A stretch of DNA of 14,298 nucleotides from a virus, in UHGV virus genome UHGV-0208508. One strand, written 5' to 3'. Positions 2-14,223 of this stretch are shown here, one piece after another; positions within the stretch are counted from its first letter, which is position 1, and each line of letters opens with the position of its first letter. Under the pieces are notes generated by a model, which made no database searches, was not told where the DNA came from, and worked only from the letters and a program-made list of their open reading frames with translations. The position numbers and the translations under genes are program-made.

Positions 2-604
2 TCGAGCAACATGGTGCCGCCGATGTCGTACCGCTTTATGTACGGCCTGACTGAGTATCCGCTGGAAGGCAACAGCGCACTGCTGAAATCTCTTCAGGAC
101 AGCAACATCAACTACATCGGCACCGGCGCCGAAGGTGGACTCAGCAATAAAGTGCTGTTCACCGGCCGCATGCTCGATGGTAACCCGTTCAACTACTGGT
201 ATTCGGTGGCGTGGACGGCGATCAACCTTGAGCTCGACCTGGCGAATGAAATCATCAACGGCTCCAACACGACCGTTAACCCGCTGTACTACGAGCAGAA
301 GGGCATTGACCGCCTGCAGCGTCGCGCTCTGAAAACCATGCGTAATGGCATCAGCTACGGGCTGATCCTCGGTCGCGTCATCGACACGCAACTGACGCAG
401 GAAGATTTCGACACCGAGTATGACAAAGGCACTTACGCCGGCAACGCCGTGATCAACGCCGTGCCGTTCAGTAACTACAACAGCCTGAACCCCTCCGATT
501 ATCAGGAAGGCAAATATAACGGGCTGAGCGCCGTCATGACGCCGCGCCGCGGCTTCGAATCCATCACGTTTAACGTGAACGTAACGAACTTTGTAGGGGC
601 GTAA
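2..604 (+). CDS. Phage tail structural protein, C-terminal portion (possibly tail sheath); reading frame is open to the window edge so the 5' end is probably outside the window
   Basis: The frame has no stop between position 2 and the TAA at 602-604. The ATG at 11 has no ribosome-binding site within the 10 nt available. It lies directly upstream of a tube-sized ORF in a contractile-tail cluster. The sheath assignment is inference from gene order only. Confidence 0.55.
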   Translation, partial: SSNMVPPMSYRFMYGLTEYPLEGNSALLKSLQDSNINYIGTGAEGGLSNKVLFTGRMLDGNPFNYWYSVAWTAINLELDLANEIINGSNTTVNPLYYEQKGIDRLQRRALKTMRNGISYGLILGRVIDTQLTQEDFDTEYDKGTYAGNAVINAVPFSNYNSLNPSDYQEGKYNGLSAVMTPRRGFESITFNVNVTNFVGA

Positions 605-607
605 AAA

Positions 608-1045
608 ATGGCGAACCCATTAGTACCGCAGGGCTTCCTTAACCGCGTACGCGGGGCTCTTTCCGTCACGGACACACCGGCGCTGAACGTTTCTGCGTCG
701 TACCTGGCAAAGGACGGCATTAGCCTGCGTCCGGATGGCCCGGCGACCGACATCATCCCTACGATGACCGGAACCGTCGGCAGCCAGGCGCCGTATCAGC
801 AGGTAACGCTGACCGTGCATCTCCTGAAAACTCAGGGGCTGGGCGAAAGCTACCGGCAACGCTTTTTAACCGACACGTCGCTGGGTGAAATCGTGGTAAC
901 GCCGGATGCAACGACGTTCGGCAATATCACGCTGCTCAACTGCTATCTGGTCAACTTCAACGAGCTGGCTTTCAGCGGGATGGACCCGGCTTTTGTGGTA
1001 ACCATCAGCGGCTATATGGTCACCAACGACAACATGTGGGTGTAA
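608..1045 (+). CDS. Putative tail tube protein (145 aa)
   Basis: ATG at 608 is preceded by an AGGGG Shine-Dalgarno-like sequence and starts 3 nt after the upstream stop. Size and position (after the putative sheath, before the chaperone and tape measure) fit a tube protein. Function is inferred from synteny. Confidence 0.55.
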   Translation: MANPLVPQGFLNRVRGALSVTDTPALNVSASYLAKDGISLRPDGPATDIIPTMTGTVGSQAPYQQVTLTVHLLKTQGLGESYRQRFLTDTSLGEIVVTPDATTFGNITLLNCYLVNFNELAFSGMDPAFVVTISGYMVTNDNMWV

Positions 1046-1048
1046 TGC

Positions 1049-1621
1049 ATGAAAATTGACAAGAAACTGAATCTGGTCACCAACGTTACCCGCGAAGACG
1101 GCTCGATCGTATACCTGCATGTGACGCCATTCCCCTATGAGGTGGTGGAAGAACACTGCATCCTGCTGGGGAACCTGTTCACAAAATTCATCTCGCAGGT
1201 GGGTGGTCTTGGCGCCGCCAGAATCGCCGCGATGATGCTGAGGCAGAGCCTGAAAGCGGAAATCGATAACGGTCGGACAGGTCCGAACATCGTTGATGAA
1301 ATTCAGCGACTGACGGTCGTTATCCATAACGTCGGCGGCCAGTGGAACACCACGCCCCTTGAGATGGCATTCAAACAGGGGATTATCGACCCTGATGAGT
1401 ATCGCGAGGTCGAAGGCGAAGTGGTTTTTTTTATGGTTTCCTCTGCTATTCAGAAGGCAAACCTGATCGCGCCGACAGTGGGAACGGTGATCAAAATGTA
1501 CGATGGGCAACTAACCTCATCGAGCGTTACGGCGTTCCGCGATTCGTTGCAGACGTCGAAGCCGGATACCGATATCCCGACCCAGAATGCCCAGCCGGAA
1601 ACGTCATTTATACCCTCTTAG
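1049..1621 (+). CDS. Putative tail assembly chaperone (190 aa)
   Basis: It sits immediately upstream of the tape-measure gene, the conserved position of tail chaperones, and has an acidic C-terminal region. No frameshift extension ORF was found downstream. Confidence 0.45.
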   Translation: MKIDKKLNLVTNVTREDGSIVYLHVTPFPYEVVEEHCILLGNLFTKFISQVGGLGAARIAAMMLRQSLKAEIDNGRTGPNIVDEIQRLTVVIHNVGGQWNTTPLEMAFKQGIIDPDEYREVEGEVVFFMVSSAIQKANLIAPTVGTVIKMYDGQLTSSSVTAFRDSLQTSKPDTDIPTQNAQPETSFIPS

Positions 1622-1744
1622 ACTGGGCGTCTAATGAGGGATTCTGGCAGGTGATAAGGGAGATCACCGGCGAGGAGTATGCCAGCCCGGCGCAGTACCG
1701 GCAGCGCTACCTTCTCGCCGCGCTCAAAGAAAGAGGTTTCTTCA

Positions 1745-3562
1745 ATGGTAGCTAAGTCGATCGTCGACATTGACGTAAATGACGACAAGTTTGTCGCGTT
1801 TATGGAAAGGTTTCGCGAGTACCAGAGCGCGCTGGATGATTTACCGGAAGCCTGGCGAGTGGCTGCCGTTGGCATTGGCGAAAGCAGCAAGCAGACCGAA
1901 AAGGCCAAAGGTGAGGCGAAGGAGTTAGGCGCGGAGTTTAACGCCGTGGCCGAGGCCATTCTGACCATCAACAGCGGTATCGATCGGCTCAATACCAACC
2001 TGGAAGACTCGAAGAAAAAGCAGGGCGAATTCAACAAAAGCACCCGATCTGCGAAGGGCTTCCTCAGCGATGCGACGAAAGACGCTAAATCGCTGGCAGG
2101 TCACATCAAGGAAGCGACGGCCAGCCTTCTGTCCTGGGGTGGTATTGTCGGGATATTTACCGGCGTCCTTGGCATTGGCGGCCTGTTTGGCATCAACCGC
2201 CTGGCTGCCACCACCGGTGCCCAGCGGTTTACTTCTCTCGGGCTCGGGACGAGCATCGGCGCGCTGGATTCCACCGCCATAAACTACCAGAAAGCGCTGG
2301 GTAATCCGGCGGGGACGCTGGGCGCTATCCGCGATTCCCAGATGGACCTGTCGAAGCGCTGGACGTTTCAGGCTATGGGGATTAACAATCCCGACCAGGA
2401 CCCGGCCAAACTGCTCCCGCAGATGATCCGTAATGCGCGCGATATTTTCGTGCAGAACGGCAGCACGCTGCAGGGCGCACAGGCGCACGGCCTGACAAAC
2501 TTCTTTACGCTGGACGACCTGAACCGCTTCAAAAACATGAGCGATGAGGAGATCACCGCCATGGAGAAGCGCGCGCAGCAGGATGCGCGTATGTTGCAAA
2601 TTACCGACCAGCAGGCGCGTCAGTGGCAGGATTTTAACGTCCAGCTCGATTACAGCAGCCAGAGCATCAGAAACACGTTTGTGCGCGGCCTGGGTCCTCT
2701 CACACCTCAACTGAGAAAACTGTCTGATGCGCTGTCAGGCGCGATCGATACCGTCCTGAAATCCCCCGAACTCGGCAAGTGGATTGATGCGCTTGCCGGC
2801 GGCATTGAGCGATTCGGTAATTACCTCGCTTCTCCTGAATTTTCCACAGATGTAAGCAACTTTATGGACAAAGTAGAGAAAATGGGAAATCTAATTGGCA
2901 AGGTTATTGATTGGGTAACAGGGAAAGCGAGTATCTCTACTGCGGATATATCATCCGGGTCAACGATGTTGAGCCCAAGCACCATCATCGATCCGAAAAC
3001 GGGAAAATCCTATACTCCTGGAAGCAATGATGACCCGCATGTATGGGGCTGGCTCAAGGGTGTTAGGCGCTTCTTTGAAGATGGAACCGTTAAAGCTGTT
3101 GATCCCACACCTGCAAATACTTCCGACAGAAACAGGACTATTGCAGATCGATTTAATAATCCGGGAAATCTGCGGTGGGCTGAAGGATACAGCAGCGAGA
3201 ATACGAGAAGCGGTAAATTTGCCGTCTTCCCAACGCTGGATGAAGGCGTACTGGCGGCGACAAAGCAACTTCAAATGTATGGCGCTAAAGGAATAAATAC
3301 GGTAGGAGATATTGCAAGAAAATGGGCTCCTCCTAAGGAAAATAATACCGCTGAGTATATTCGGCATGTGGTTAAAACTACTGGATTTAATGAGAATCAG
3401 AAACTGAATCTCAATGATCCTCAGGTTATCGCGAAACTCATTTCTGCTATATCTCAAAAAGAAGGGGCTGGTAGCAGAGTTTCTGAGAGCACAGTCATTC
3501 AGATCTATAACAATACCGGCGGGAATGCAGTGGTAACTTCAGCGCAATTGGGGGCGAGGTAA
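1745..3562 (+). CDS. Tail tape measure protein (about 605 aa from ATG 1745; an alternative in-frame ATG lies at 1679)
   Basis: Strong ribosome-binding site AAGAAAGAGG before ATG 1745. It is the longest ORF in the tail module, with an N-terminal helical/charged region, a Gly-rich hydrophobic segment (LSWGGIVGIFTGVLGIGGLFGI), and a Q/A/R-rich helical central part. It sits between the chaperone and baseplate genes. Confidence 0.8.
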   Translation: MVAKSIVDIDVNDDKFVAFMERFREYQSALDDLPEAWRVAAVGIGESSKQTEKAKGEAKELGAEFNAVAEAILTINSGIDRLNTNLEDSKKKQGEFNKSTRSAKGFLSDATKDAKSLAGHIKEATASLLSWGGIVGIFTGVLGIGGLFGINRLAATTGAQRFTSLGLGTSIGALDSTAINYQKALGNPAGTLGAIRDSQMDLSKRWTFQAMGINNPDQDPAKLLPQMIRNARDIFVQNGSTLQGAQAHGLTNFFTLDDLNRFKNMSDEEITAMEKRAQQDARMLQITDQQARQWQDFNVQLDYSSQSIRNTFVRGLGPLTPQLRKLSDALSGAIDTVLKSPELGKWIDALAGGIERFGNYLASPEFSTDVSNFMDKVEKMGNLIGKVIDWVTGKASISTADISSGSTMLSPSTIIDPKTGKSYTPGSNDDPHVWGWLKGVRRFFEDGTVKAVDPTPANTSDRNRTIADRFNNPGNLRWAEGYSSENTRSGKFAVFPTLDEGVLAATKQLQMYGAKGINTVGDIARKWAPPKENNTAEYIRHVVKTTGFNENQKLNLNDPQVIAKLISAISQKEGAGSRVSESTVIQIYNNTGGNAVVTSAQLGAR

Positions 3563-4272
3563 TGGGATTCACACGTGAAATGTATAAGCTGGGTTTTGAA
3601 ATATCCCCAGTAATACTTTGCGGAGGGATAGCGCAGGCCATTCCTGGAGGAATGCTCCCGATCGTCGCTTTGACACAGAGCGCGAGCTTTGTTACGGGGC
3701 TGCTTGGAGGAGCCATAAACCTAACCGATCTGGATAAATATTTCTGCCACTGGCGACCGGTTCAGGGCGCCACAATGGTTGATTATGAAATTGCCAGATA
3801 CCCTTTCGCTAACCAGGTAGTAGCTGCGAACGCCTTGCTTGCTCAGCCTTTGCGCGTTTCGTTGGTAATGGAGGCCCCGGTCAATGAAAACACCGGGGCG
3901 ATGACAAAGCTCGTCACTATGAGTGCTTTGCAGTCTGTCCTTCAGGCGCATTCTAACTTAGGCGGCACGTTTATCGTCGCCACCCCATCCGTTATCTATA
4001 GCAACTGCATTTTGCGTGTAGTGAGGGACATTACCTCTGGTAACGATCCATTACCACAGCGTTCATGGATATGGGATTTCGAGCAGCCACTGATAACCGA
4101 TAATGGTGCAGAGCAGGCCGTGAACAATTTTTTAAACAAGATTGGCGCCGGGGATATGGTAACCGACCCATCCTGGACTAATACCGCCAATGCTCTTGGC
4201 AACACGCCTCTCGGGAGCTCTGTATCGGAAGCAATAACCGGCCTATTGGGTAAGTTGGGGGTAGGGCCATGA
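3562..4272 (+). CDS. Tail/baseplate assembly protein, uncharacterized (236 aa)
   Basis: Start ATG overlaps the tape-measure stop (TAATG) and is preceded by GGGGCGAGG. It is co-directional within the tail operon. No recognisable motif. Confidence 0.65.
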   Translation: MGFTREMYKLGFEISPVILCGGIAQAIPGGMLPIVALTQSASFVTGLLGGAINLTDLDKYFCHWRPVQGATMVDYEIARYPFANQVVAANALLAQPLRVSLVMEAPVNENTGAMTKLVTMSALQSVLQAHSNLGGTFIVATPSVIYSNCILRVVRDITSGNDPLPQRSWIWDFEQPLITDNGAEQAVNNFLNKIGAGDMVTDPSWTNTANALGNTPLGSSVSEAITGLLGKLGVGP

Positions 4273-4547
4273 CAACCCAGAATTATCCGTTTACCGGCAA
4301 TGATCGTCAAAGCATGACATTTACACCGATCCTTGATGGCACCGTCTATAACTGCCAGGTTAAATGGAACATTGCCGGGCTGAGGTGGTATGTCCTCATT
4401 ACAGATGGCTCTGGGAATACCATTCTAAATACCCCGCTCGTTGGCTCCGAGCTTAACGGTGGAATAAATATTATCTCCGGAGTGTTTAATTCGTCCTCCA
4501 TGTACTGGCGCGAACAGAATGGACTGATTGAGGTAAACAGTTCATGA
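4269..4547 (+). CDS. Small tail/baseplate-associated protein (92 aa), uncharacterized
   Basis: ATGA start/stop overlap with the upstream gene, a GGGGGTAGGG ribosome-binding site, and the stop overlaps the next start. Translational coupling pattern is typical of phage structural operons. Confidence 0.6.
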   Translation: MTTQNYPFTGNDRQSMTFTPILDGTVYNCQVKWNIAGLRWYVLITDGSGNTILNTPLVGSELNGGINIISGVFNSSSMYWREQNGLIEVNSS

Positions 4548-5581
4548 GATATTATGATATTGAGATAACCATTCCTGCTGAAGGTGCCTCTCCGGAAAGA
4601 ACGATAAAATACAGTAGCCATAAGAACGGAGTTTACAACCCCGGCGCCCTGATGATTGAGTTTGATATCCTCAGGTACGGTGAATCGACTCCCCAGGGCG
4701 AAACTCACCTGACCATCTGGGGTATTGGCCCAAAAGAAATGCAGCAGGCTCGCCAGAATTTTTTTGGCAAAAAAATTAAAATATTCCTTGGGATGAAAGA
4801 CGGGCTGCCATTGGCTGGCAAGGTTACCTCACCAAAACTGGTATTGGATGGCGTGATAAATCAGGTCTTTGGTAACTGGCAGGGTATTGAGTTACGACTT
4901 GACTTCATAATCGTGGTTGGTCCTGTCCAGAACGTGCCAAATAACAAACCCGTACCCCTTCCTTTAACCTTTGACTGGAAGGAGGGGCAGAAGCTTTCTG
5001 TAGCCCTCACGCAGTGTTTTATGAACATCAGAGGGTATACGTTCAATATCAACATAAGCGACCGGCTAATCCTTAATCATTACCGGGGGCTGTTTTGTGA
5101 TGACATTGTCACCCTGGCCAAGGACCTTAATGCTTTTTCACGTTCCAGAATTCGCGATAGCGGGTACTCTGGTGTAGAGATCGCAATAGTGAATGGTAAT
5201 GAGATCCGGGTATGGGATAACGATTATGATAACCACCCGGATAAGACTTCTGTTTCCAGCGCCGTAGCCAGAAGCAACAGCCCAACCCAAATAGATTTCA
5301 AGGATTTGATAGGGCAGCCGACATGGGTGGCATTTAACACAATCAGCATGGCGTGCGTAATGCGCGGTGATATTCAGGTTGGCGATCACATCCTGATGCC
5401 TAAAAAAAGCACTCCGTTGATACAGGCCTCTTCGTACTCTCAGTATCGAGAAGACTCTGCCTTTACTGGCGACTTTATTGTGAACTCCGTTCGCCTGTTA
5501 GGGAATAGCAGGCAACCAACGGCAGAGGCATGGGTAACAATTATTGAGGCTTCCCCTTTCATTAAGGCAGGTAGTGCATGA
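4544..5581 (+). CDS. Putative baseplate hub protein (345 aa)
   Basis: GAGGT ribosome-binding site. It lies immediately upstream of the spike gene, the position of the hub (P2 gpD / Mu gp44-type) in contractile-tail clusters. The assignment is positional inference. Confidence 0.6.
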   Translation: MRYYDIEITIPAEGASPERTIKYSSHKNGVYNPGALMIEFDILRYGESTPQGETHLTIWGIGPKEMQQARQNFFGKKIKIFLGMKDGLPLAGKVTSPKLVLDGVINQVFGNWQGIELRLDFIIVVGPVQNVPNNKPVPLPLTFDWKEGQKLSVALTQCFMNIRGYTFNINISDRLILNHYRGLFCDDIVTLAKDLNAFSRSRIRDSGYSGVEIAIVNGNEIRVWDNDYDNHPDKTSVSSAVARSNSPTQIDFKDLIGQPTWVAFNTISMACVMRGDIQVGDHILMPKKSTPLIQASSYSQYREDSAFTGDFIVNSVRLLGNSRQPTAEAWVTIIEASPFIKAGSA

Positions 5582-6294
5582 GCATCGACAACAAGCTTAA
5601 TTTTGCCTCAAGCATGAACAGGTTTACTGAAAGAAAGATTGAAAATGCGCTTCAAAAATCAGGGAAAGTTCTTCCGGCGAGCGTGGTTAAGCAAACTGGG
5701 AATATGATCACCGTCTCCTTCGAGCTAAGGGATATCCCATATGTTTTGCCGCAAGTGACTATCCCCTTATTTGGCCCTCAATATATTCGTTACCCTATGC
5801 AGCCGGGAGATAAGGGGATTGTTATCCCCGCAGATACTTACATTGGCGGCGTTAGCGGTCAGGGAGGCGGCATTGCAGATATGACTCCGCCAGCAAACTT
5901 AAGCGCCCTCGTTTTCTTGCCGATCAGTAATACCGAGTGGCAGGGTGTCGACGGACAGGTGGTGACGGTATACGGGCCGGAGGGTGTAACGCTGCGCGAC
6001 AGTGGCAGCAACACGACGTTTCTCCTGAAGCCTGACAGCATCGCCATTTCCACACCTGACAGCTTCACCGTCACCGTTGGCGGGACAGTTTTCTCACTGA
6101 CGGGTAGCAAATGGAGCCTTTCAGGCCAGGCTGGTCACCTGCAGGATTCAGTGGCCAGTACTAGCCCTGCAATCATGCACGCCGGGTGGCAGTCGCTTCT
6201 GACCTGGCTTAACAGCCATGAACATTCAAACGGCAACGATGGAAATGATACCGGGGGGCCGACTTCAACGTTTAACGGGAGTATCACCGAGTGA
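5578..6294 (+). CDS. Baseplate central spike protein, gpV-like (238 aa)
   Basis: ATGA overlap with the upstream gene. Gly-rich beta-type sequence with a C-terminal His-x-His motif (SHEHSNGNDGNDTGG), reminiscent of the metal-binding tip of P2 gpV-type spikes. It sits just before W-like and J-like genes. Confidence 0.65.
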   Translation: MSIDNKLNFASSMNRFTERKIENALQKSGKVLPASVVKQTGNMITVSFELRDIPYVLPQVTIPLFGPQYIRYPMQPGDKGIVIPADTYIGGVSGQGGGIADMTPPANLSALVFLPISNTEWQGVDGQVVTVYGPEGVTLRDSGSNTTFLLKPDSIAISTPDSFTVTVGGTVFSLTGSKWSLSGQAGHLQDSVASTSPAIMHAGWQSLLTWLNSHEHSNGNDGNDTGGPTSTFNGSITE

Positions 6295-6623
6295 GAACCT
6301 ATGGCCGAAACTCTGAGGGGAAGTGGGTCCTGGTGGAAACCGACGAAAATGGGTTTAATGACTTGGTGTATTTAACCACCCTGATCCAGAATCTGAAACT
6401 GGCGCCGCAGGAGTCACCCTTTTATGCGAACAACGGAATCCCGGCCGCCGGGTCGGTGATCCAGCAAATCCTGCCGACGTATTACGTAAACCGTATTCAG
6501 AAACAGTTCAGCCAGTATTTTTCCTCGCTGCAGATTGCACTGATCAGCGACGACCCGCCTGTTTATAACATCTCGGCAATCACAAATGCAGGTTCAAAAA
6601 TAATTACACAGGTGGCCGTATGA
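6291..6623 (+). CDS. Putative baseplate wedge protein (W/gp25-like, 110 aa)
   Basis: GTG start overlapping the upstream TGA (GTGA). Size and position directly upstream of the J-like gene fit the V-W-J-I order of P2/Mu-type baseplates. Inference from synteny and size. Confidence 0.55.
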   Translation: MRTYGRNSEGKWVLVETDENGFNDLVYLTTLIQNLKLAPQESPFYANNGIPAAGSVIQQILPTYYVNRIQKQFSQYFSSLQIALISDDPPVYNISAITNAGSKIITQVAV

Positions 6624-8038
6624 GCGATTTACCAGTCAGCTATACGTCAGCAGGCCCGGTTCCTCTGACGCCGGAAGAGCTACGAGCACAGCTCGTTTCT
6701 CAGGCAATTGCGCTATCTCCGGGACTCACAACTGATTTGCCTGGATCTCTGATTGAGGACGTGGCCAGTACCGATGTCGGCGCGCTCATCGTTTGTGATC
6801 AAGCAAGGGTTGACCTGATTAACTCGGTGGGGCCACTAAAGGCTAACCTGGCCATGCTGGAGCTTCTCGCACAGCAGGCTGGTATTCCTGGGCAGAAAAC
6901 GGCTGGCACAACAACAGTCCCGGTTCAGTTTTCCGGCCCCGCGGGATTTGTTATCCCACAGGGGTTTATTGTTTCTGATGGGACCTATACCTATTCAGTC
7001 AGTGATGCGACGATTATCTCGTCGTCTGGAGTATCTGCCAGCGTATCATGCGAGGGAACGGAGACCGGGACCTGGGCGGTGCCGGTAAATACGGTTAACC
7101 AGATCATATCCAGTCTACCGTCTGACGTCACCATCACCTGCACCAACCCGATCGCCGGCACTCCGGGTGCTGACCCGGAAACGAACTATCAGTTTCGTGA
7201 TCGCGTATGGCAGGCGCAGATGGCCACCGTTCAGGGATATCCTGGATTTATCCGGCAATATCTCACCAGCCTTGATAACGTGCAGGCGCGCCTGGTTTCT
7301 GTCATTCAGGACGGGGATAAATGGATAGTCATGTGTGCCGGCGGTGATATTTACGATATTGCTGGCGCGCTCTATAAGTCTGCGGGGGATATCAGCCGGC
7401 TGAAAGGGTGTTCACTGAACGTAACGGGAATCACGAATGCAAATCCTGGTGTCGTCAGCACAGACCTGACTCATGGTTACACTGACGGCCAGGTTATCCG
7501 GATCACTGGCGTTACCGGGATGACGGGTATTAATGACGTCCCTCTGACCGTGACGGTACTGTCTCCTCACACGTTTTCCATCGGGATTGACACCACGTCA
7601 TCCGGGACCTGGGGAGGCGGCGGCGAGGTGACACCGAACGTCAGAAACAATACCGTGACGGTGAATGACTGGCCTGATAACTACGTGATCCCGTTCGTGA
7701 CGCCATTGCTGCAGCGGGTCACTGTGACGTATCAGTGGGGGACAGAAAGTGTTAACTACCTGACAGATGCCACGGTCGCCTCTCTGGTCTCGGCGCCTAC
7801 GATTCAGTATGTGAACGGCATATTCGCCGGGAAACCGCTGAACGTTAACAACCTGAAAGACGCATTCTTACAGGCGATTAACTCGACAATCGACATGGGG
7901 CTGATCAGCACTTTAAACGTCGTGGTCACCATCAATGGTGTGATAACACCACCGGATGCCGGGACGAATATCATCAGCGGCGATAAGTTCAGTTATTTTT
8001 ATATCGCGTCGGATGGCGTGATCGTAACAGGGGCGTAG
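6620..8038 (+). CDS. Baseplate J-like protein (472 aa)
   Basis: ATGA overlap with the upstream gene and an AGGTGG ribosome-binding site. A large protein between the W-like and I-like genes, which is the conserved position of baseplate J / gp6-type wedge proteins. Confidence 0.7.
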   Translation: MSDLPVSYTSAGPVPLTPEELRAQLVSQAIALSPGLTTDLPGSLIEDVASTDVGALIVCDQARVDLINSVGPLKANLAMLELLAQQAGIPGQKTAGTTTVPVQFSGPAGFVIPQGFIVSDGTYTYSVSDATIISSSGVSASVSCEGTETGTWAVPVNTVNQIISSLPSDVTITCTNPIAGTPGADPETNYQFRDRVWQAQMATVQGYPGFIRQYLTSLDNVQARLVSVIQDGDKWIVMCAGGDIYDIAGALYKSAGDISRLKGCSLNVTGITNANPGVVSTDLTHGYTDGQVIRITGVTGMTGINDVPLTVTVLSPHTFSIGIDTTSSGTWGGGGEVTPNVRNNTVTVNDWPDNYVIPFVTPLLQRVTVTYQWGTESVNYLTDATVASLVSAPTIQYVNGIFAGKPLNVNNLKDAFLQAINSTIDMGLISTLNVVVTINGVITPPDAGTNIISGDKFSYFYIASDGVIVTGA

Positions 8039-8039
8039 C

Positions 8040-8744
8040 ATGCTGGACGATATCATCCGGTCGTATATGTATACGCAATACAACGACGATGAAAATCTGC
8101 GGGCGTTTTTTACTGCGTATAACTCGATGGCGCAGGGCATTTATGACTGGATGGTTAATGCCAACCTGCCGATTTTCATCGGTGACTACAACACCGGAGA
8201 TCAGCTCCGGTGGATTGCCCATGGCATCTATGGCGTTTTGCCGCCGGTGATTTCCAGCAGCGATCAGCAGGAGATAGGCCCATATAACACCTTCGAATTT
8301 AACCAACTGGCATTCAATGAATACCGGGTGATTGACCAGTCGAACCAGGTTGTTGTCTCCGATGACCTTTTTAAGCGGATCATGACCTGGAATTTTTATA
8401 AAGGTGACGGCTTCTATTTCTCTATCCCATGGATAAAACGGCGTATTCTGCGGTTCCTGTTGGGAGTGAATGGCACCGATATCCTCAATGACCAGCGGTG
8501 GAGTATATCGATCCAGTTTGTGGATGGCGGGATCGTGATATCCATCTATAAGGGGCGCCGCAGGTTCACGCGGAGCGCTATCTACAACGCATCGGCCTAT
8601 AACTCCAGGAAGTACAACCAGAAGGACACGGCCTTTGTGATCACCGAGGATTTCGAGTTCGCTATTTTCTTCAAGCAGGCCATGGATAGCGGCCTGCTTC
8701 ACATGCCGTTTTACCAGTCAGTCACGGTTGAGATATTTGACTAG
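8040..8744 (+). CDS. Baseplate/tail protein I-like (234 aa)
   Basis: Starts 2 nt after the J-like stop with an AGGGGCG ribosome-binding site. Position between J-like and the tail-fiber genes matches P2 gpI / Mu gp48-type proteins. Confidence 0.6.
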   Translation: MLDDIIRSYMYTQYNDDENLRAFFTAYNSMAQGIYDWMVNANLPIFIGDYNTGDQLRWIAHGIYGVLPPVISSSDQQEIGPYNTFEFNQLAFNEYRVIDQSNQVVVSDDLFKRIMTWNFYKGDGFYFSIPWIKRRILRFLLGVNGTDILNDQRWSISIQFVDGGIVISIYKGRRRFTRSAIYNASAYNSRKYNQKDTAFVITEDFEFAIFFKQAMDSGLLHMPFYQSVTVEIFD

Positions 8745-8996
8745 GTTTTTATCTCGATTATCTATTGTTATATACAAATGAGATTTAACGCACTGACAAA
8801 TTATATGCAGCACAACTATTGATAAAAACAAAATGGATGACATTTTTATCATATCTATTGGCGGCATTCCTTGCTGAAAAAGAAATCCAAATAAAATAGT
8901 AAGCAAGGCGCAAGAAAGGAGTATTAATAAAGTAGATAGCGTTCCTAAAAGTATTTTTAAAATAGCAATAGAAGCATTATTCATAATATTCACCAT
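8718..8996 (-). CDS. Hypothetical small hydrophobic (two predicted transmembrane segments) protein encoded antisense in an AT-rich island; may be an artefact of AT-rich composition
   Basis: 92-codon minus-strand ORF, strongly hydrophobic (ASIAILKILLGTLSTLLILLSCALLTILFGFLF and MSSILFLSIVVLHIICQCV). No convincing Shine-Dalgarno sequence at the first ATG (a weak GGTG precedes the second ATG). AT-rich DNA readily yields Ile/Leu/Phe-rich ORFs by chance. Confidence 0.25.
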   Translation of the reverse strand: MVNIMNNASIAILKILLGTLSTLLILLSCALLTILFGFLFQQGMPPIDMIKMSSILFLSIVVLHIICQCVKSHLYITIDNRDKNLVKYLNRD

Positions 8997-9002
8997 TTAA
9001 AA

Positions 9003-9026
9003 GGCCGCGCTTGCGGTTTTTTTATT
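9003..9026 (+). terminator. Putative rho-independent terminator-like hairpin with T-tract (CCGC-GCTT-GCGG followed by TTTTTTT), flanked upstream by an A-run so possibly bidirectional
   Basis: Short GC stem (4-5 bp) with a tetraloop, directly followed by 7 T residues on the plus strand. It lies about 20 nt upstream of the first fiber gene's ribosome-binding site. Confidence 0.4.
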
Positions 9027-9045
9027 GCCTAATCCCGGAGGATAC

Positions 9046-11790
9046 ATGGCACTAACCCTTTTGGCTACAAACAACGCAGAAAGCACGCTGGCTTCTGCTA
9101 TCAGCGCAACCGACACGTCGCTGATCGTTAGCGCTGGAACTGGTGCCGAGTTCCCTGATGCTGTGGCAGGCGAGAGCTACTTTAAACTCACGCTCACCGA
9201 TGCCGCCACCGGCTCACAGGTTGAGATCGTGAACGTGACAGCTAAGGCTGGGGACATCTTCACGATTGAACGTGCGCAAGAAGGAACGCTGGCGCGTTCG
9301 TGGGCGGCCAACGACATGGTTGCCAACATGATGACGGCGGATACGCTGAACATTATCGCTCAATATGCCCAGCAGGCAGCTGCATCAGCAGCACAGGCTG
9401 CTGAGTATGCAGATAACGCTTCTGACTACGCACAGAATAAGTTCACGTTCTTTAAGACCGCCAGCGATCCTGATGGCACTATTGCCGGGCTGGCCGCAAC
9501 GACTGAAGGGCAGTCATTCTGGGTAGCCCAAGGTCCAGATGCGCTTTCTGCTGCATGGCAGTATCAGAATGTTGCGGGTGTAGCCGTGTTACAGGCTAAG
9601 CAGCCAGGAACAGCGGCTATAACCGGGACAATCCGCGAATTTCCCACGCTGGAGGCGGCACAGGCCGACGCCGATGCTGGCAATATTCCTACAGGTTCAA
9701 ATGCGTATTATCGAAGCGCTGACGACACAACTCTTGCGATTGAGGTAATCAACAACGCCGGTACGTTGACAGCAACCGGAAGAAAAATTCCAGCGTATTC
9801 CGCTTTGCGCAGAGGCAACATTTTATTCGACGCATTTAATGAATATTCAGCTGTTGATCCTAAGTTTGGTGCCTGGGACTGGTATCGCGGAGCTACTGTT
9901 ACATTTAGTACTACTGATGCCAACATTCCGTTACCGACTCCAGTGGCACAGTATTCCGGCGTATGGTCTGCAGATAAATATTATGACCTTGCCCGCCTGC
10001 CTGTAAGGGTAGGCGATCAATTAACCTTTTCTGTGCTGGCATGGTTTCAGGATGCCGGTGCTAAGTTCCATATATTCTGGATGTCCGCGAGCGGTACGAT
10101 AATATCCTCAAAATCCGTAACTGGACTGGCTTCAGGAATTAATGTTCCAGTTTTAACAGATATTGTTCCTGCTGGGGCGTCGTATGTACGAATTCGCGTA
10201 GAAAACACGACAACAGGATCGTTCAAGGTGGGAGCCTATGCGTCCGCTGTTGGTTCTATTCAGCCTGAATTTATTCGTGCCGCTCCTGACAAGACCTATA
10301 TGTCAGCGATTGTCTCTTCAGGCATCGCTGGCCTAACCTCGCGCGTGGATGCGTTGCAGGGGGCCATTTCTGTTGGGTATCCGTATGCAGCGACCTGGCA
10401 GGTTGGTAAATTTGTAAACCCAAATACCGGGGAAATAACAGATAATGCTGCGCTGAACTGTACCATAATTCCTCATAGTGACGGGGACGGTTGGCTGGTT
10501 ACTGCTCTCGTTACTGGATCGGCCACAGCTCTGGCTGTGTATATGAATGCGGCTGGCACAGTGCTGGGAGTGGAGGGGCGCGGAACAACAACGCCGCAGC
10601 AGTATACGAATTACCGCCTTAACGTTCCGTCGGGAACCACGCAGATCGGCATAACCGGTCGTAATTCTGCTCCAATGTCTGTTAAGAAATTGGCCGTTGT
10701 TGAAACTGCTACTGTACTGGCTAGCATCGATTCTCTCGATTCACGTGTACAGAAAATAGAAGATTCGCTGGTTTACGATTTCGTTCAGCAGGATGTCCCT
10801 ATTACGTCTGGAGCATATATAAACCGATCTACCGGTGCCGTCGTAACAAACTCTGCATTTGATTGTTCGATATTTGACTATACAACAGGAGATCGCTGGA
10901 AAGTTACGGCAAGGGTGAATGGAACGAGCGTATCACTCGCTGTATATTTTAATTCAGTGGGCACTGTCATTGGGACGGAAGGCGATGGTACATCAGCATC
11001 TGTGGATTACATTGATTATGAGCTGACGCCACCAACCGGCACTGCCAGGATAGGCATCACAACACGGGTTGCACTTCCTATAGTTGCTAAAAAATATGTC
11101 ATTGTTCCCAGCGGAAGTACAGTAAGTCCGTGGTCGGGAAAAATTATTGATGTAATGGGAGACAGCAACGTAGCCTATAACAAATGGCAACCGCTGGTTG
11201 CTAGTGAACTTGGTTGTTCTTTCCTGAACCATGGTGTTGGTGGTTCAAAGATCGCCAAACCCGATAGTTCACCGACACAAATCAGCATGTGTGACGACGC
11301 CAGGATTAATGCCCTCGATACGACGGCCACTGCCTGGATTTGTGGCCCGTGGGGGACAAATGACTGGGCGCAAAATATACCCATTGGAACTATTAGTGAC
11401 ACTGTGAATACCACGGTCTATGGTGCGCTAGTCATAATTGCACAAAAGCTTAGGGCGAGAGCACCAACCAAGCCTATTTTTTGGGTTACTCCATTCAACG
11501 GAGATTATGAAACTGGGAGGACTAGTTCATGGGTTGATGGGGAAACTAACCAATATGGCAGGGTGTCTGATTATTCTGCTGCAATTCGAGCTGTAGCTCT
11601 GCGATATGGCTTCCCATTGATTGATTTAAATGCAGATTGTGGGTGGACAAAATTTAATAGTAGTTATTTTTTGCTAACGGAAGGTGATACTAACCCTTCT
11701 CATATTCATTTAAATGATAGTGCTGGTCCAGCCAGAATTTCGGAGTTGGTAATAGATCGTTTAACGGCCCTTGCGAATTTGGCCAACTAG
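9046..11790 (+). CDS. Tail fiber / tailspike protein with C-terminal SGNH/GDSL-family hydrolase (esterase-like) domain (about 914 aa from ATG 9046)
   Basis: GGAGGA ribosome-binding site before ATG 9046. N-terminal about 105 aa is homologous to the N-terminus of the downstream fiber. An Ala/Gln-rich probable coiled-coil segment follows, then beta-rich repeats. The C-terminus carries GDS (VMGDSNV), a conserved Gly block (NHGVGGSK), GxND (WGTNDW) and a His block (NPSHIHLND). Confidence 0.85.
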   Translation: MALTLLATNNAESTLASAISATDTSLIVSAGTGAEFPDAVAGESYFKLTLTDAATGSQVEIVNVTAKAGDIFTIERAQEGTLARSWAANDMVANMMTADTLNIIAQYAQQAAASAAQAAEYADNASDYAQNKFTFFKTASDPDGTIAGLAATTEGQSFWVAQGPDALSAAWQYQNVAGVAVLQAKQPGTAAITGTIREFPTLEAAQADADAGNIPTGSNAYYRSADDTTLAIEVINNAGTLTATGRKIPAYSALRRGNILFDAFNEYSAVDPKFGAWDWYRGATVTFSTTDANIPLPTPVAQYSGVWSADKYYDLARLPVRVGDQLTFSVLAWFQDAGAKFHIFWMSASGTIISSKSVTGLASGINVPVLTDIVPAGASYVRIRVENTTTGSFKVGAYASAVGSIQPEFIRAAPDKTYMSAIVSSGIAGLTSRVDALQGAISVGYPYAATWQVGKFVNPNTGEITDNAALNCTIIPHSDGDGWLVTALVTGSATALAVYMNAAGTVLGVEGRGTTTPQQYTNYRLNVPSGTTQIGITGRNSAPMSVKKLAVVETATVLASIDSLDSRVQKIEDSLVYDFVQQDVPITSGAYINRSTGAVVTNSAFDCSIFDYTTGDRWKVTARVNGTSVSLAVYFNSVGTVIGTEGDGTSASVDYIDYELTPPTGTARIGITTRVALPIVAKKYVIVPSGSTVSPWSGKIIDVMGDSNVAYNKWQPLVASELGCSFLNHGVGGSKIAKPDSSPTQISMCDDARINALDTTATAWICGPWGTNDWAQNIPIGTISDTVNTTVYGALVIIAQKLRARAPTKPIFWVTPFNGDYETGRTSSWVDGETNQYGRVSDYSAAIRAVALRYGFPLIDLNADCGWTKFNSSYFLLTEGDTNPSHIHLNDSAGPARISELVIDRLTALANLAN
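10405..11106 (+). repeat. Two tandem homologous domain repeats of about 100 codons each inside the first fiber gene (about 10405-10701 and 10810-11106), diverged at nucleotide level
   Basis: Protein-level alignment by eye: GWLVTALVTGSATALAVYMNAAGTVLGVEGRGTTTPQQYTNYRLNVPSGTTQIGITGR versus RWKVTARVNGTSVSLAVYFNSVGTVIGTEGDGTSASVDYIDYELTPPTGTARIGITTR. Confidence 0.6.
11131..11787 (+). other. SGNH/GDSL hydrolase-like catalytic domain at the C-terminus of the first fiber (predicted catalytic Ser codon at 11164-11166)
   Basis: Ordered motif blocks typical of SGNH hydrolases: GDS near the domain start, a conserved Gly, GxND, and a C-terminal Asp/His block. Assigned from motif order only, with no profile search. 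Confidence 0.6.
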
Positions 11791-11865: not shown

Positions 11866-12897
11866 ATGGCGCTTAAGCTATTAGCCAATAATAACGCAAA
11901 GAGTGTTCTCGCTGCGGGTATTAGCGCGTCCGCTACCGTTATTACCGTGGGTACCGGAGCGGGGGCTTTATTCCCTTCCCCTGTATCTGGACAGAGTTAT
12001 TTCAAATTAACGATAACCGACGCGGCCACGAAAACAATTTCTGAAATTATGCACGTCACGTCTGTATCCGGTGACGTGATGACAGTAATTCGTGGTCAGG
12101 AAGGAACTACGGCACGCGTATGGTCAACAAATGACATTGTCGCGAATCTAATGACAGCCGGATCATTGTTATCGTTCCTGCAGATCAGTAATAACCTGTC
12201 AGAAATTAAAGATGCCGGTGATGATGCGGTAAATGAAGCCCGTTATAACCTCGGAATATCTGATTCCTCTGGTTTTGTCGGGCGTTCACTTGGCGCTCCA
12301 AAAGTTTTCTATGCAAACGGAACCTATACGCGATCTCCTCTGGCCCGTTATGCAAAAGTAACGTTGACCGGTGCCGGTGGCGGCGGTGGCGGCTGCCAGG
12401 CATCTAATAACACCGAAACCTTTTCCGGTGCCGGCGGCGGCGCGGGTGCGACCATTATCGTATGGGTTGACCTGTCTGCTGCCAGTTCTTACGCGATTAC
12501 TGTCGGCAAGGGTGGTAAGGGCGGAGTTGGCGCAGTAAGTGGTGCGGATGGTGGTGCTACCTCGTTTGCCAGCCTGTTCTCAGCTCCTGGCGGGAAAGGC
12601 GGCGTGAAGTCAGGCGTGTCCAATACCGCCGGCGGCGCCGGAGGTACGGCGGCGACCGGAGATATCAGGATCAACGGTGGTACCGGCTCAGATGGACAGA
12701 CAGGCTCAAGCCTTCTGACGGGAAACGGCGGGGCGTCGTATTTTGGCGGCGGTGGCCGGGCGGGTTCTCAGGCCGGTATTGCTGGCGCAGCTCCCGGATC
12801 CGGTGGTGGTGGCGCGTATGACCTTGGGTTTACCGGTACGGCATTTACCGGTGGTGATGGTGCTACTGGCATGGCGATCGTGGAAGAATTCGCGTAA
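11866..12897 (+). CDS. Second tail fiber / receptor-binding protein with glycine-rich C-terminal domain (343 aa)
   Basis: AGGGG ribosome-binding site before ATG 11866. N-terminal about 105 aa aligns with the first fiber N-terminus (MALxLLAxNNAxSxLAxxISAxxT...SYFKLTxTDAAT...QEGTxAR.W..ND.VAN.MTA). The C-terminal about 180 aa are dominated by GG/GGG/GGGG motifs separated by short variable segments. Confidence 0.8.
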   Translation: MALKLLANNNAKSVLAAGISASATVITVGTGAGALFPSPVSGQSYFKLTITDAATKTISEIMHVTSVSGDVMTVIRGQEGTTARVWSTNDIVANLMTAGSLLSFLQISNNLSEIKDAGDDAVNEARYNLGISDSSGFVGRSLGAPKVFYANGTYTRSPLARYAKVTLTGAGGGGGGCQASNNTETFSGAGGGAGATIIVWVDLSAASSYAITVGKGGKGGVGAVSGADGGATSFASLFSAPGGKGGVKSGVSNTAGGAGGTAATGDIRINGGTGSDGQTGSSLLTGNGGASYFGGGGRAGSQAGIAGAAPGSGGGGAYDLGFTGTAFTGGDGATGMAIVEEFA

Positions 12898-12901
12898 TGG
12901 C

Positions 12902-14062
12902 TTACACTCCTGCACGACCATCGATGTAATCAGCCCACCACTGCATCATTTCTCTGCGCTTATCTAGATACTGAGCATGGTTGTAAATACCGCGCACAGA
13001 TCCGCCGTTGGCATGTGCCAGCTGCACTTCAATAGCGTCAGCAGGCCATTCGTGCTCGTTCATAATCGTGCTGAATTCATGCCTGAATCCGTGACCGCTT
13101 TCCAGACCCTCATAGCCGATTTGTTTGATCACAAGCAGTACCGCATTCTCGCAGATTGGCTTCTTCTTATCGTTGCGCCCGGCAAAAACAAACTCTGAGA
13201 CTGGTTTGGTGATTGAGCTTAGCGTAGTGAGAAGTTCAACCACCTGGTCTGACATAGGAACAACATGAATCTTGCGGCCCTTCATCACACTGGCGTCGAT
13301 AGTGATAATCCTGTTTTCAAAATCGACGTTCTTCCATAGCATGGAACGAAGCTCTTTTGTTCTGAGGGCTGTGTAGCGTAAAACTTTGGTCGCAATGAGC
13401 GATACGATACTTCCTGAAAATGTTGCCAGTGCTTTGTTGAATGCAGGGATCTGGTCTGCTGGGAGAAACGGGAAGTTCTTCTTGCGGTATCCCTTCATGG
13501 CGTCAGCAAGGTCAGGTGCCGGGTTATATTTAGCCCTTCCGGTGACAATAGCGTAACGGAAAACCTCGCCGCATCTTCTGCGTGCTTTGTTGGCTCGCTC
13601 CATTGCACCGCGATCTTCAAATCTGCGGATTACTTCCAGCAGTTGCATCGGCTCAATATCCTGAATTTCAAGGCCGCCGATGATAGGTAAAATGTCGTCA
13701 TCAAACATTTTTGCAAGTTCAGTTGCATACCCTACTGACCATACTTGCTTCTTGTGCTCGTACCATTCTTTGTAAATCGCACTAAAGGAATTGTTGTTAG
13801 ACGAAGCCTTTTTCGCTTTTACCGGATCGATGCCAACCGAGATGTCTTTCCTCGCGGTCCATGCTTTATCTCTTGCCTCCTGCAAAGTCATAAGCGGATA
13901 TTTTCCGACGGTCAGGATTTTCTCCTTACCGTCAATCTTGTAGCGAAGCTGCCATACCTTTTTCCCTGACACAGGGACATAAAGGTACAGGCCATTACCA
14001 TCGAGTAGGCGGTATGGTTTTTCTTTCGGCTTTGCTGCTTCAATCTGCTTAACGGTGAGCAT
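12902..14062 (-). CDS. Phage integrase, tyrosine recombinase of the P4/IntS-like family (386 aa from the ATG at 14060-14062; an in-frame GTG at 14096-14098 would add 12 codons)
   Basis: 398-codon minus-strand ORF with C-terminal catalytic-domain signatures (HGFRHEF for His-x-x-Arg, and RGIYNHAQY with the presumptive catalytic Tyr) and an N-terminal arm-type DNA-binding region. It lies about 125-160 bp from a co-oriented tRNA gene, the canonical integrase-tRNA arrangement. Confidence 0.9.
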   Translation of the reverse strand: MLTVKQIEAAKPKEKPYRLLDGNGLYLYVPVSGKKVWQLRYKIDGKEKILTVGKYPLMTLQEARDKAWTARKDISVGIDPVKAKKASSNNNSFSAIYKEWYEHKKQVWSVGYATELAKMFDDDILPIIGGLEIQDIEPMQLLEVIRRFEDRGAMERANKARRRCGEVFRYAIVTGRAKYNPAPDLADAMKGYRKKNFPFLPADQIPAFNKALATFSGSIVSLIATKVLRYTALRTKELRSMLWKNVDFENRIITIDASVMKGRKIHVVPMSDQVVELLTTLSSITKPVSEFVFAGRNDKKKPICENAVLLVIKQIGYEGLESGHGFRHEFSTIMNEHEWPADAIEVQLAHANGGSVRGIYNHAQYLDKRREMMQWWADYIDGRAGV

Positions 14063-14223
14063 GGGTAAAAATCCGGTGGGTAAAATTATTTTATCCACTT
14101 TTTACCCGTCATGGAGTGCGGCTGTCAACGATCTGACGCGAACCATTACGAACTGTGAATCTACGGAAGGCTTGATATTCAGGGGATTTTGCGGACTGGT
14201 ACGGATGGGAGCGAACTGATAAA

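Follow-up and report, generated by a model that had tools for sequence, protein, structure and literature searches.

Virion-associated lysins carried on tape-measure and ejection proteins are well established, and gp16 of phage T7 is counted among them as a lytic transglycosylase (PMC5380687). A separate lysozyme-like family, PHA02564, has its founding structure in 7Q47, the crystal structure, at 1.6 Å, of the endolysin (ORF39) catalytic domain from Hafnia phage Enc34, an all-helical domain that is related to the lysozyme fold but consists of the alpha lobe only, with Trp79, Tyr95 and Glu131 as the proposed catalytic residues (PMC8943055). Muralytic activity of this domain has been shown on E. 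coli, P. aeruginosa and H. alvei, and on P. aeruginosa sacculi the isolated domain equals hen lysozyme in activity (PMC8943055). Here we examine a stretch of 14,298 nucleotides from the virus genome UHGV-0208508 (hereafter the window), whose gene order marks it as the half of a temperate contractile-tailed phage that encodes tail and baseplate, and in particular its tape-measure gene (1745..3562, plus strand). The encoded protein carries near its C-terminus a module (residues ~488-603) that sequence and predicted structure both identify as a member of the Enc34-type (PHA02564) family. We have good confidence that this module is an Enc34-type lysozyme-like glycosidase borne on the tape measure, where its most likely role is that of an entry lysin associated with the virion.

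An Enc34-type module on the tape measure

Residue numbering throughout counts from the ATG at position 1679. The parts of the protein are as follows.

2138..2194, plus strand: Gly-rich hydrophobic segment GGIVGIFTGVLGIGGLFGI (aa 154-172), the top Kyte-Doolittle window of the protein (mean 1.88)
2837..3505, plus strand: exchanged cassette (aa 387-609), a diverged linker plus the enzyme domain, delimited by DNA and protein alignments with Chronis gp14 and the RothC tape-measure protein
2921..3148, plus strand: flexible linker rich in Ser, Thr, Asp and Pro (aa 415-490), from composition and a predicted local distance difference test score (pLDDT) below 50 in the single-sequence model
3149..3487, plus strand: predicted Enc34-type (PHA02564) muralytic domain (aa 491-603)
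3155..3178, plus strand: NNPGNLRW motif (aa 493-500) in the alpha1-alpha2 loop, aligned with RNNNPGNIEW of Enc34
3323..3325, plus strand: Trp549, equivalent by HMMER alignment to Enc34 Trp79, the putative substrate-positioning aromatic residue
3338..3343, plus strand: Glu554-Asn555 (ENNT motif), a conserved acidic/amide pair in the alpha3-alpha4 loop
3356..3358, plus strand: Tyr560, equivalent by alignment to Enc34 Tyr95, 96% conserved
3461..3463, plus strand: Glu595, equivalent by alignment to Enc34 Glu131, 97% conserved and invariant in alignments A2 and A4
3503..3559, plus strand: conserved C-terminal tail IYNNTGGNAVVTSAQLGAR (aa 609-627), common to the alleles bearing an SLT domain

The assignment to the family rests on several comparisons. 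A phmmer search of the PDB returned two chains, 9vvp_L ('Gp29', 1295 aa, residues 6-117; E 1.3e-15) and 7q47_A, the Enc34 endolysin (E 1.9e-7), the latter match covering domain residues 17-123. In the HMMER alignment, Enc34 W79, Y95 and E131 correspond to W549 (within KWAPP), Y560 (AEYI) and E595 (QKEG), the chain indices of 7q47 (80, 96 and 132) each lying one above the published numbering. The last 150 residues match the PHROGs families annotated 'endolysin', 'tail length tape measure protein', 'tail injection transglycosylase' and 'head protein'. A word-indexed homologue search gave 18 proteins, mostly fragments, and an exhaustive HMMER scan of 1.84 billion cluster representatives was used instead; at the threshold E<=1e-3 it yielded 7643 representatives, of which 1485 remained at E<=1e-10, a similarity that by this measure is far beyond chance.

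The conservation figures come from the best 167 of these homologues. Because N494 (95%), P495 (94%) and N497 (89%) are conserved across them, NNPGNLRW is the N-terminal signature of the Enc34-type family. Position 549 is aromatic in 166 of the 168 aligned sequences (99%; W in 92, Y in 63, F in 11), at position 554, E is present in 90% and D in 6%, and 99% retain N555. Between the module and its counterpart in Yersinia phage vB_YenM_21.09 (hereafter 21.09), the proportions of nonsynonymous and synonymous differences (pN 0.156, pS 0.805) indicate purifying selection; they are given in place of substitution rates (dN/dS) because the synonymous sites are saturated.

The conservation of Glu554-Asn555 (90% and 99%) is on par with that of the assigned catalytic residues. 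The pair is not discussed in the Enc34 structure paper (PMC8943055), and it may supply the second carboxylate that a GH73-like mechanism would call for.

Two other glycosidase families were considered. The window protein gave no match to SLT (GH23, PF01464) even at E<=1, and its sister alleles match this family; nor did sequence or close structural similarity place it in the GH73 N-acetylglucosaminidases.

Structure prediction points in the same direction. A single-sequence AlphaFold2 run on residues 450-627 gave a pLDDT of 56.8 and was replaced by a run with a 29-sequence alignment, in which the segment, described as compact-looking in the sequence-only reading of the locus, is predicted as an independent globular domain (pLDDT 87.6; predicted template-modelling score 0.81). 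The model has helices at domain residues 14-17, 46-62, 68-75, 83-94, 107-121 and 129-139 and a short hairpin at 31-42, and it places the Trp at the end of the third helix, the Tyr in the fourth and Glu595 at the end of the fifth (107-121), which is the arrangement of catalytic residues described for Enc34. The predicted fold is thus six-helical, lysozyme-like and restricted to the alpha lobe, with the catalytic helix alpha5 following alpha4. A Foldseek search of the PDB gave 7q47 as the sole significant match (probability 1.00, TM 0.60-0.68) and did not return 9VVP.

All the strings quoted in the sequence-only reading are present in the 1679..3562 translation, with RFNNPGNLRWAEGY beginning at residue 491, FAVFPTLDEGVLAATKQLQMYG occupying residues 514-535 and IARKWAP residues 545-551. 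The low-complexity linker that it described is also evident: S, T, D, P, G and N make up 57% of residues 415-490 vs 38% of residues 1-414, and residues 415-450 are 25% Ser and 14% Thr. Its compact C-terminal segment of 150 residues was right as to the existence of a globular core and too long, the core spanning ~115 residues (~488-603). The final 24 residues (604-627), above all IYNNTGGNAVVTSAQLGAR, form a separate conserved tape-measure tail that has a pLDDT below 50 in the isolated-domain model, with the last 13 residues disordered. An N-x-TGG motif occurs in the final 35 aa of 42 of the 167 homologues. Judged from these comparisons, the tail looks like a terminal peptide of tape measures that does not depend on the enzyme module, and it is probably a docking peptide for the baseplate hub. 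We also observed the fuller pattern ...NNTGG(N/S)A(I/V)V...Q(L/V)... at the extreme C-terminus of 42 of the 167 homologues (among P0019-P0167) and of the SLT-bearing alleles.

Exchange for an SLT domain and the proposed role in entry

The most informative finding concerns near-identical tape measures that carry a different enzyme. The proteins of the Klebsiella phages Chronis (gp14) and RothC are ~98% identical to the window protein over aa 1-386 (23-386 for RothC), and the Chronis C-terminal tail is identical to IYNNTGGNAVVTSAQLGAR, that of RothC being similar. Between these conserved parts, both proteins have a Pfam SLT domain (E 1.8e-17 and 9.3e-19, respectively) in the slot of the Enc34-type domain. 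At the DNA level, identity to Chronis and RothC stops at about nt 2837 and returns at about nt 3506. Megablast coverage of the gene in these phages is only about 62-64%; the flanks of the cassette are ~95-100% identical to the SLT-bearing relatives. The GC content is 0.42-0.48 in the cassette vs 0.56-0.61 upstream, which is weak evidence of foreign origin because the downstream baseplate genes are similarly AT-rich.

Both versions occur in E. coli genomes. The tape-measure gene was found in 44 of 5426 complete E. coli genomes; 30 of these have the Enc34-type cassette, annotated 'hypothetical protein', and in ~13 the match extends over the N-terminal 60-64% only (in most of them together with the tail), the product being called 'lytic transglycosylase domain-containing protein'. 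Yersinia phage 21.09 has the Enc34-type version, with 65% identity overall and 77% in the module. Furthermore, the same alternation recurs, as judged by sequence comparison, in a proven entry protein: the N-terminus of T7 gp16 is an SLT domain (E 1.7e-31) and that of K1F gp16 (residues 7-116) is of the Enc34 type, 41% identical to the window module (E 4e-21), with 53% identity between the K1F and T7 proteins from residue 125 onward. It is conceivable, although we think it rather unlikely, that the SLT and Enc34-type cassettes, which alternate independently in tape measures and in gp16, form a dimorphism of entry enzymes that is maintained, as opposed to neutral mosaicism. If so, the two enzymes would cut different bonds, MurNAc-GlcNAc for the lytic transglycosylase and GlcNAc-MurNAc for the glucosaminidase; the swaps would answer host-specific peptidoglycan chemistry, growth state or periplasmic inhibitors of lysozymes and lytic transglycosylases; and the tip of the tape measure would be a second host-range determinant, inside the envelope.

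Taken together with the established virion-associated lysins, the equivalence of the slot to that of SLT argues for a role of the module in entry. Under the proposed mechanism, the tape measure would lie in the lumen of the tail tube, its C-terminus retained at the baseplate end through the IYNNTGG... tail, and would be expelled first upon sheath contraction. The flexible Ser/Thr-rich linker would then allow the small helical enzyme to reach the sacculus, where Glu595, as the general acid at the end of alpha5, would make local cuts in the glycan strands. Trp549 and Tyr560 would hold the glycan in position within a groove over which the NNPGN loop forms a cap. The conduit of tube and tape measure would subsequently cross the periplasm to the inner membrane. 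The bond cleaved is probably that of an N-acetylglucosaminidase, by analogy with the specificity proposed for the family.

True endolysins of this family are also found, both in chi-like phages and in D3112, whose orf21 adjoins an Rz-like spanin, and a late role of the module, aiding lysis of the host from within as in Enc34 or the D3112-type endolysins, has to be weighed on that ground. We consider it very unlikely. The prophage lineage owns a lysis cassette with holin, GH24 lysozyme and spanin-type genes: besides the tape measure, the E. coli ETEC4091 prophage, in which the module is 100% identical, encodes a holin of the lambda family together with a GH24 lysozyme and a lysis protein, and Chronis has a lysozyme and a lysis protein besides its own. 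These separate cassettes argue that the tape-measure module is not the lysis enzyme; moreover, the module forms one chain with a tail assembly protein and lacks an export signal, and the occurrence of SLT in the same slot, in tape measures and in the T7/K1F gp16 pair alike, points to entry. Slightly less improbable, and still unlikely, is a non-catalytic remnant that would serve as a peptidoglycan-binding anchor or as a plug of the tube or baseplate lumen. The very small size of the domain and its position next to the putative docking tail would fit such a role, and the catalytic residues of the family have been assigned by superposition only. However, the three proposed catalytic residues, NNPGN and ENNT are all intact, with 90-99% conservation among the homologues carried on tape measures, the other allele fills the slot with a bona fide SLT domain, and the isolated Enc34 domain is as active on sacculi as hen lysozyme. 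Finally, that the segment simply continues the helical tape measure, with no fold of its own, has a negligible probability. The whole protein does show weak coiled-coil-type matches only in Pfam, but such a continuation is refuted by the globular AlphaFold model, the Foldseek match to 7q47 and the homologues outside tape measures, because the domain is predicted to fold independently and its relatives occur in many proteins of other kinds.

Several points weigh against the entry-lysin interpretation itself. Scans of the module against Pfam and NCBIfam returned noise only and no matching model, a silence that we attribute to the fact that the Enc34-type family has no model in those libraries. 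The alpha1-alpha2 loop, which is long in Enc34, contains in the structure prediction, and only in the prediction, a short beta-hairpin formed by domain residues 31-35 and 38-42. The role of Glu131 in Enc34 comes from superposition, and no mutation of it is mentioned (PMC8943055); the data for M4Lys, the endolysin of Salmonella phage BSPM4, suggested both glucosaminidase and endopeptidase activity, so that the specificity of the family is unsettled (PMC8943055). Three copies of the folded 13-kDa domain would also have to fit the lumen of the tube or hub. For this protein we infer catalysis by the module, its bond specificity, its presence in the virion, the orientation in the tail and the entry role.

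The gene, its start and its neighbours

The genes of the window are arranged as follows.

11..604, plus strand: sheath fragment (phrog_205, sheath)
608..1045, plus strand: tail tube, from synteny
1049..1621, plus strand: 190-aa open reading frame (ORF), probable tail assembly chaperone, from synteny
1745..3562, plus strand: tape-measure gene; the longest ORF, of 627 aa, runs from 1679, and translation is likely to begin at 1745, giving 605 aa
3562..5581, plus strand: three small baseplate genes, directly downstream of the tape-measure gene
4544..5581, plus strand: baseplate hub (phrog_196 'baseplate hub', E 1.2e-33)
6620..8038, plus strand: baseplate J-like protein
9025..11790 and 11866..12897, plus strand: two fibre genes
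12902..14098, minus strand: integrase

The position of the gene between the tube and chaperone genes and the baseplate hub fits a tape measure, and Chronis, RothC and Yersinia phage 21.09 all share the arrangement of sheath fragment, tube, 190-aa ORF, tape measure, hub genes and baseplate J. Profile matches are less informative: the whole product matches phrog_7694 (E 1.5e-215), the upstream tube and chaperone context matches phrog_6566 and phrog_11810, all three being families without an assigned function, and the N-terminal part weakly matches phrog_1068 (E 8.8e-4) and phrog_4704 (E 4.4e-3). The RothC homologue is annotated 'tape measure protein', and RefSeq E. coli genomes label the exact protein only 'hypothetical protein'.

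The gene most likely starts at ATG 1745 (M23) and not at the start of the longest ORF at 1679, because an exact-sequence look-up found the 605-aa product verbatim on 20 public contigs and the 627-aa product on 0. ATG 1745 is preceded by AAGAGG 8 nt upstream, a good Shine-Dalgarno sequence. Chronis gp14 is annotated in the long form, with a 1679-type start; RothC annotates a 105-nt coding sequence across the 1679-1745 interval, which may reflect a frameshift extension of the chaperone. Upstream of the cassette, the GGIVGIFTGVLGIGGLFGI segment is near-invariant in Chronis and RothC, with I166V as the sole difference, and it may be a membrane-inserting stretch of the tape measure.

Some of the other genes drew our attention in their own right. 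The inserted domain of the baseplate J-like protein (6620..8038, aa 275-338) matches the FCCH domain of the ubiquitin-activating enzyme E1 (PF16190, E 4.2e-14); this match exceeds the Pfam threshold, and PGAP names the whole protein after it. The first fibre gene (9025..11790) has a TTG start and encodes a 921-aa tail-fibre-like protein with a C-terminal GDSL/SGNH esterase domain (PF13472, E 2.2e-9, aa 713-898), named 'SGNH/GDSL hydrolase family protein' in RefSeq and a candidate for deacetylation of the receptor polysaccharide. The protein encoded at 11866..12897 contains a Gly_rich_2 domain (PF21722, E 8.5e-14). The two fibre proteins have similar N-terminal ~100 aa (MALTLLATNNAES... vs MALKLLANNNAKS...) and differ in their distal parts, a layout that suggests alternative receptor-binding proteins built on one adaptor.

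In the head module of the phage lineage, the gene after the terminase is called 'anti-CBASS protein Acb1 family protein' by PGAP vs 'DUF1073 domain containing protein' in Chronis, and a 537-aa 'NUDIX hydrolase' is also encoded among the head genes. The coordinates of these two genes are as follows.

6257..7672 and 8503..10116: the two head-module genes in the E. coli ETEC4091 prophage
1344..2759 and 3599..5212: the same two genes in record L001

Comparison with known systems

The Enc34-type domain is widespread among phages. A tblastn search detected the module in 698 phage records, the carriers including chi-like endolysins, Kayfunavirus gp16, NO16-like phages and records of Ralstonia phage 'structural protein P5'. 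D3112 orf21 carries it as well, and in SPN1S it resides in a 937-aa protein that follows the internal virion proteins and is annotated 'head protein'. Among 138 homologues of at least 400 aa, the core ends no more than 60 aa from the C-terminus in 70 and no more than 150 aa from it in 115, and many of the 79 homologues scanned match several distinct tape-measure PHROGs (9570, 12506, 8125, 34923 and others). Because many large homologues match such distinct tape-measure families and have the core near the C-terminus, tape measures fused to an Enc34-type domain are common in sequence space. The literature that we found on Enc34 together with tape measures consisted of genome-comparison papers only, in which this fusion is undescribed. 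A separate observation concerns P0021, a 1337-aa metagenomic protein with two Enc34-type domains, around residues 100-210 and 704-814. By eye only, the stretch between them is a possible peptidase, and Pfam gave no match there; the protein looks like a multi-enzyme virion or effector protein.

With regard to the sequence-only reading, its proposal of a cell-wall-acting, ejection-associated C-terminal domain holds up as a functional guess, given the membership in the Enc34-type family and the slot equivalence. Its suggestion to look for the same module on other virion proteins was borne out by K1F gp16 and the PM2-type P5, in addition to stand-alone endolysins and a type VI secretion system (T6SS) effector. 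By contrast, the label 'uncharacterized' has to be dropped, PHA02564 having both a high-resolution structure and demonstrated muralytic activity (PMC8943055). What we describe is therefore a new member of a known family, in a fusion that is new and with a job of a familiar kind, a fairly ordinary finding that does not overturn current understanding. Nevertheless, it supplies a functional label for a protein that RefSeq leaves as hypothetical in dozens of E. coli prophages, and it suggests that the lysozyme-like fold of the Enc34 type, besides serving as an endolysin, is widespread on tape measures as an entry lysin. The clean exchange with SLT in ~98%-identical tape measures represents a natural experiment on the type of wall-cutting enzyme vs host range and infection conditions, and a small, soluble domain of a type active on Gram-negative bacteria is a further candidate for enzybiotic engineering.

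Muralytic modules on tail-length rulers have precedents in other phages. The tape measure of mycobacteriophage TM4 reportedly carries one as well. In phage T5, the module of Pb2 is delivered at the tail tip during ejection (Boulanger 2008, in PMC5380687). Unlike the window protein, Pb2 and the TM4 tape measure have modules of the peptidase or of the Rpf or lytic transglycosylase type and belong to siphoviruses. The SLT (GH23) modules of Chronis gp14, the RothC tape-measure protein and T7 gp16 occupy the identical slot and presumably do the identical job; the window module belongs to a separate family and probably attacks another bond, as a hydrolytic glucosaminidase vs a lytic transglycosylase. 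The helix order of the Enc34-type fold is permuted relative to both GH23 and GH73 (PMC8943055).

Within the family, Enc34 and M4Lys are endolysins of lysis cassettes with a C-terminal two-helix membrane domain, whereas in the window protein the domain is a C-terminal module of a tape measure, with shorter loops and an apparent baseplate-docking tail behind it. The Enc34-type fold and triad are also found in the P5 lysins of PM2 and other Vinavirales (PMC9502842) and in the Stenotrophomonas T6SS effector Tae5, within its N-terminal domain (PMC13340143); the carriers are tailless membrane-containing phages in the former case and a bacterial secretion system in the latter, as opposed to the tape measure of a tailed phage. 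The closest solved relative (E 1.3e-15) is chain L of 9VVP, which we infer to be a K1F-like (Kayfunavirus) gp16, internal virion protein D, from its 1295-aa length and near-identity in the aligned stretch only; our literature search found no paper mentioning 9VVP. Like the module described here, the K1F-like gp16 is virion-borne and ejected into the cell envelope, but there the domain is N-terminal on a 1295-aa core or ejectosome protein of a podovirus, whereas in the window it is C-terminal on the tape measure of a myovirus.

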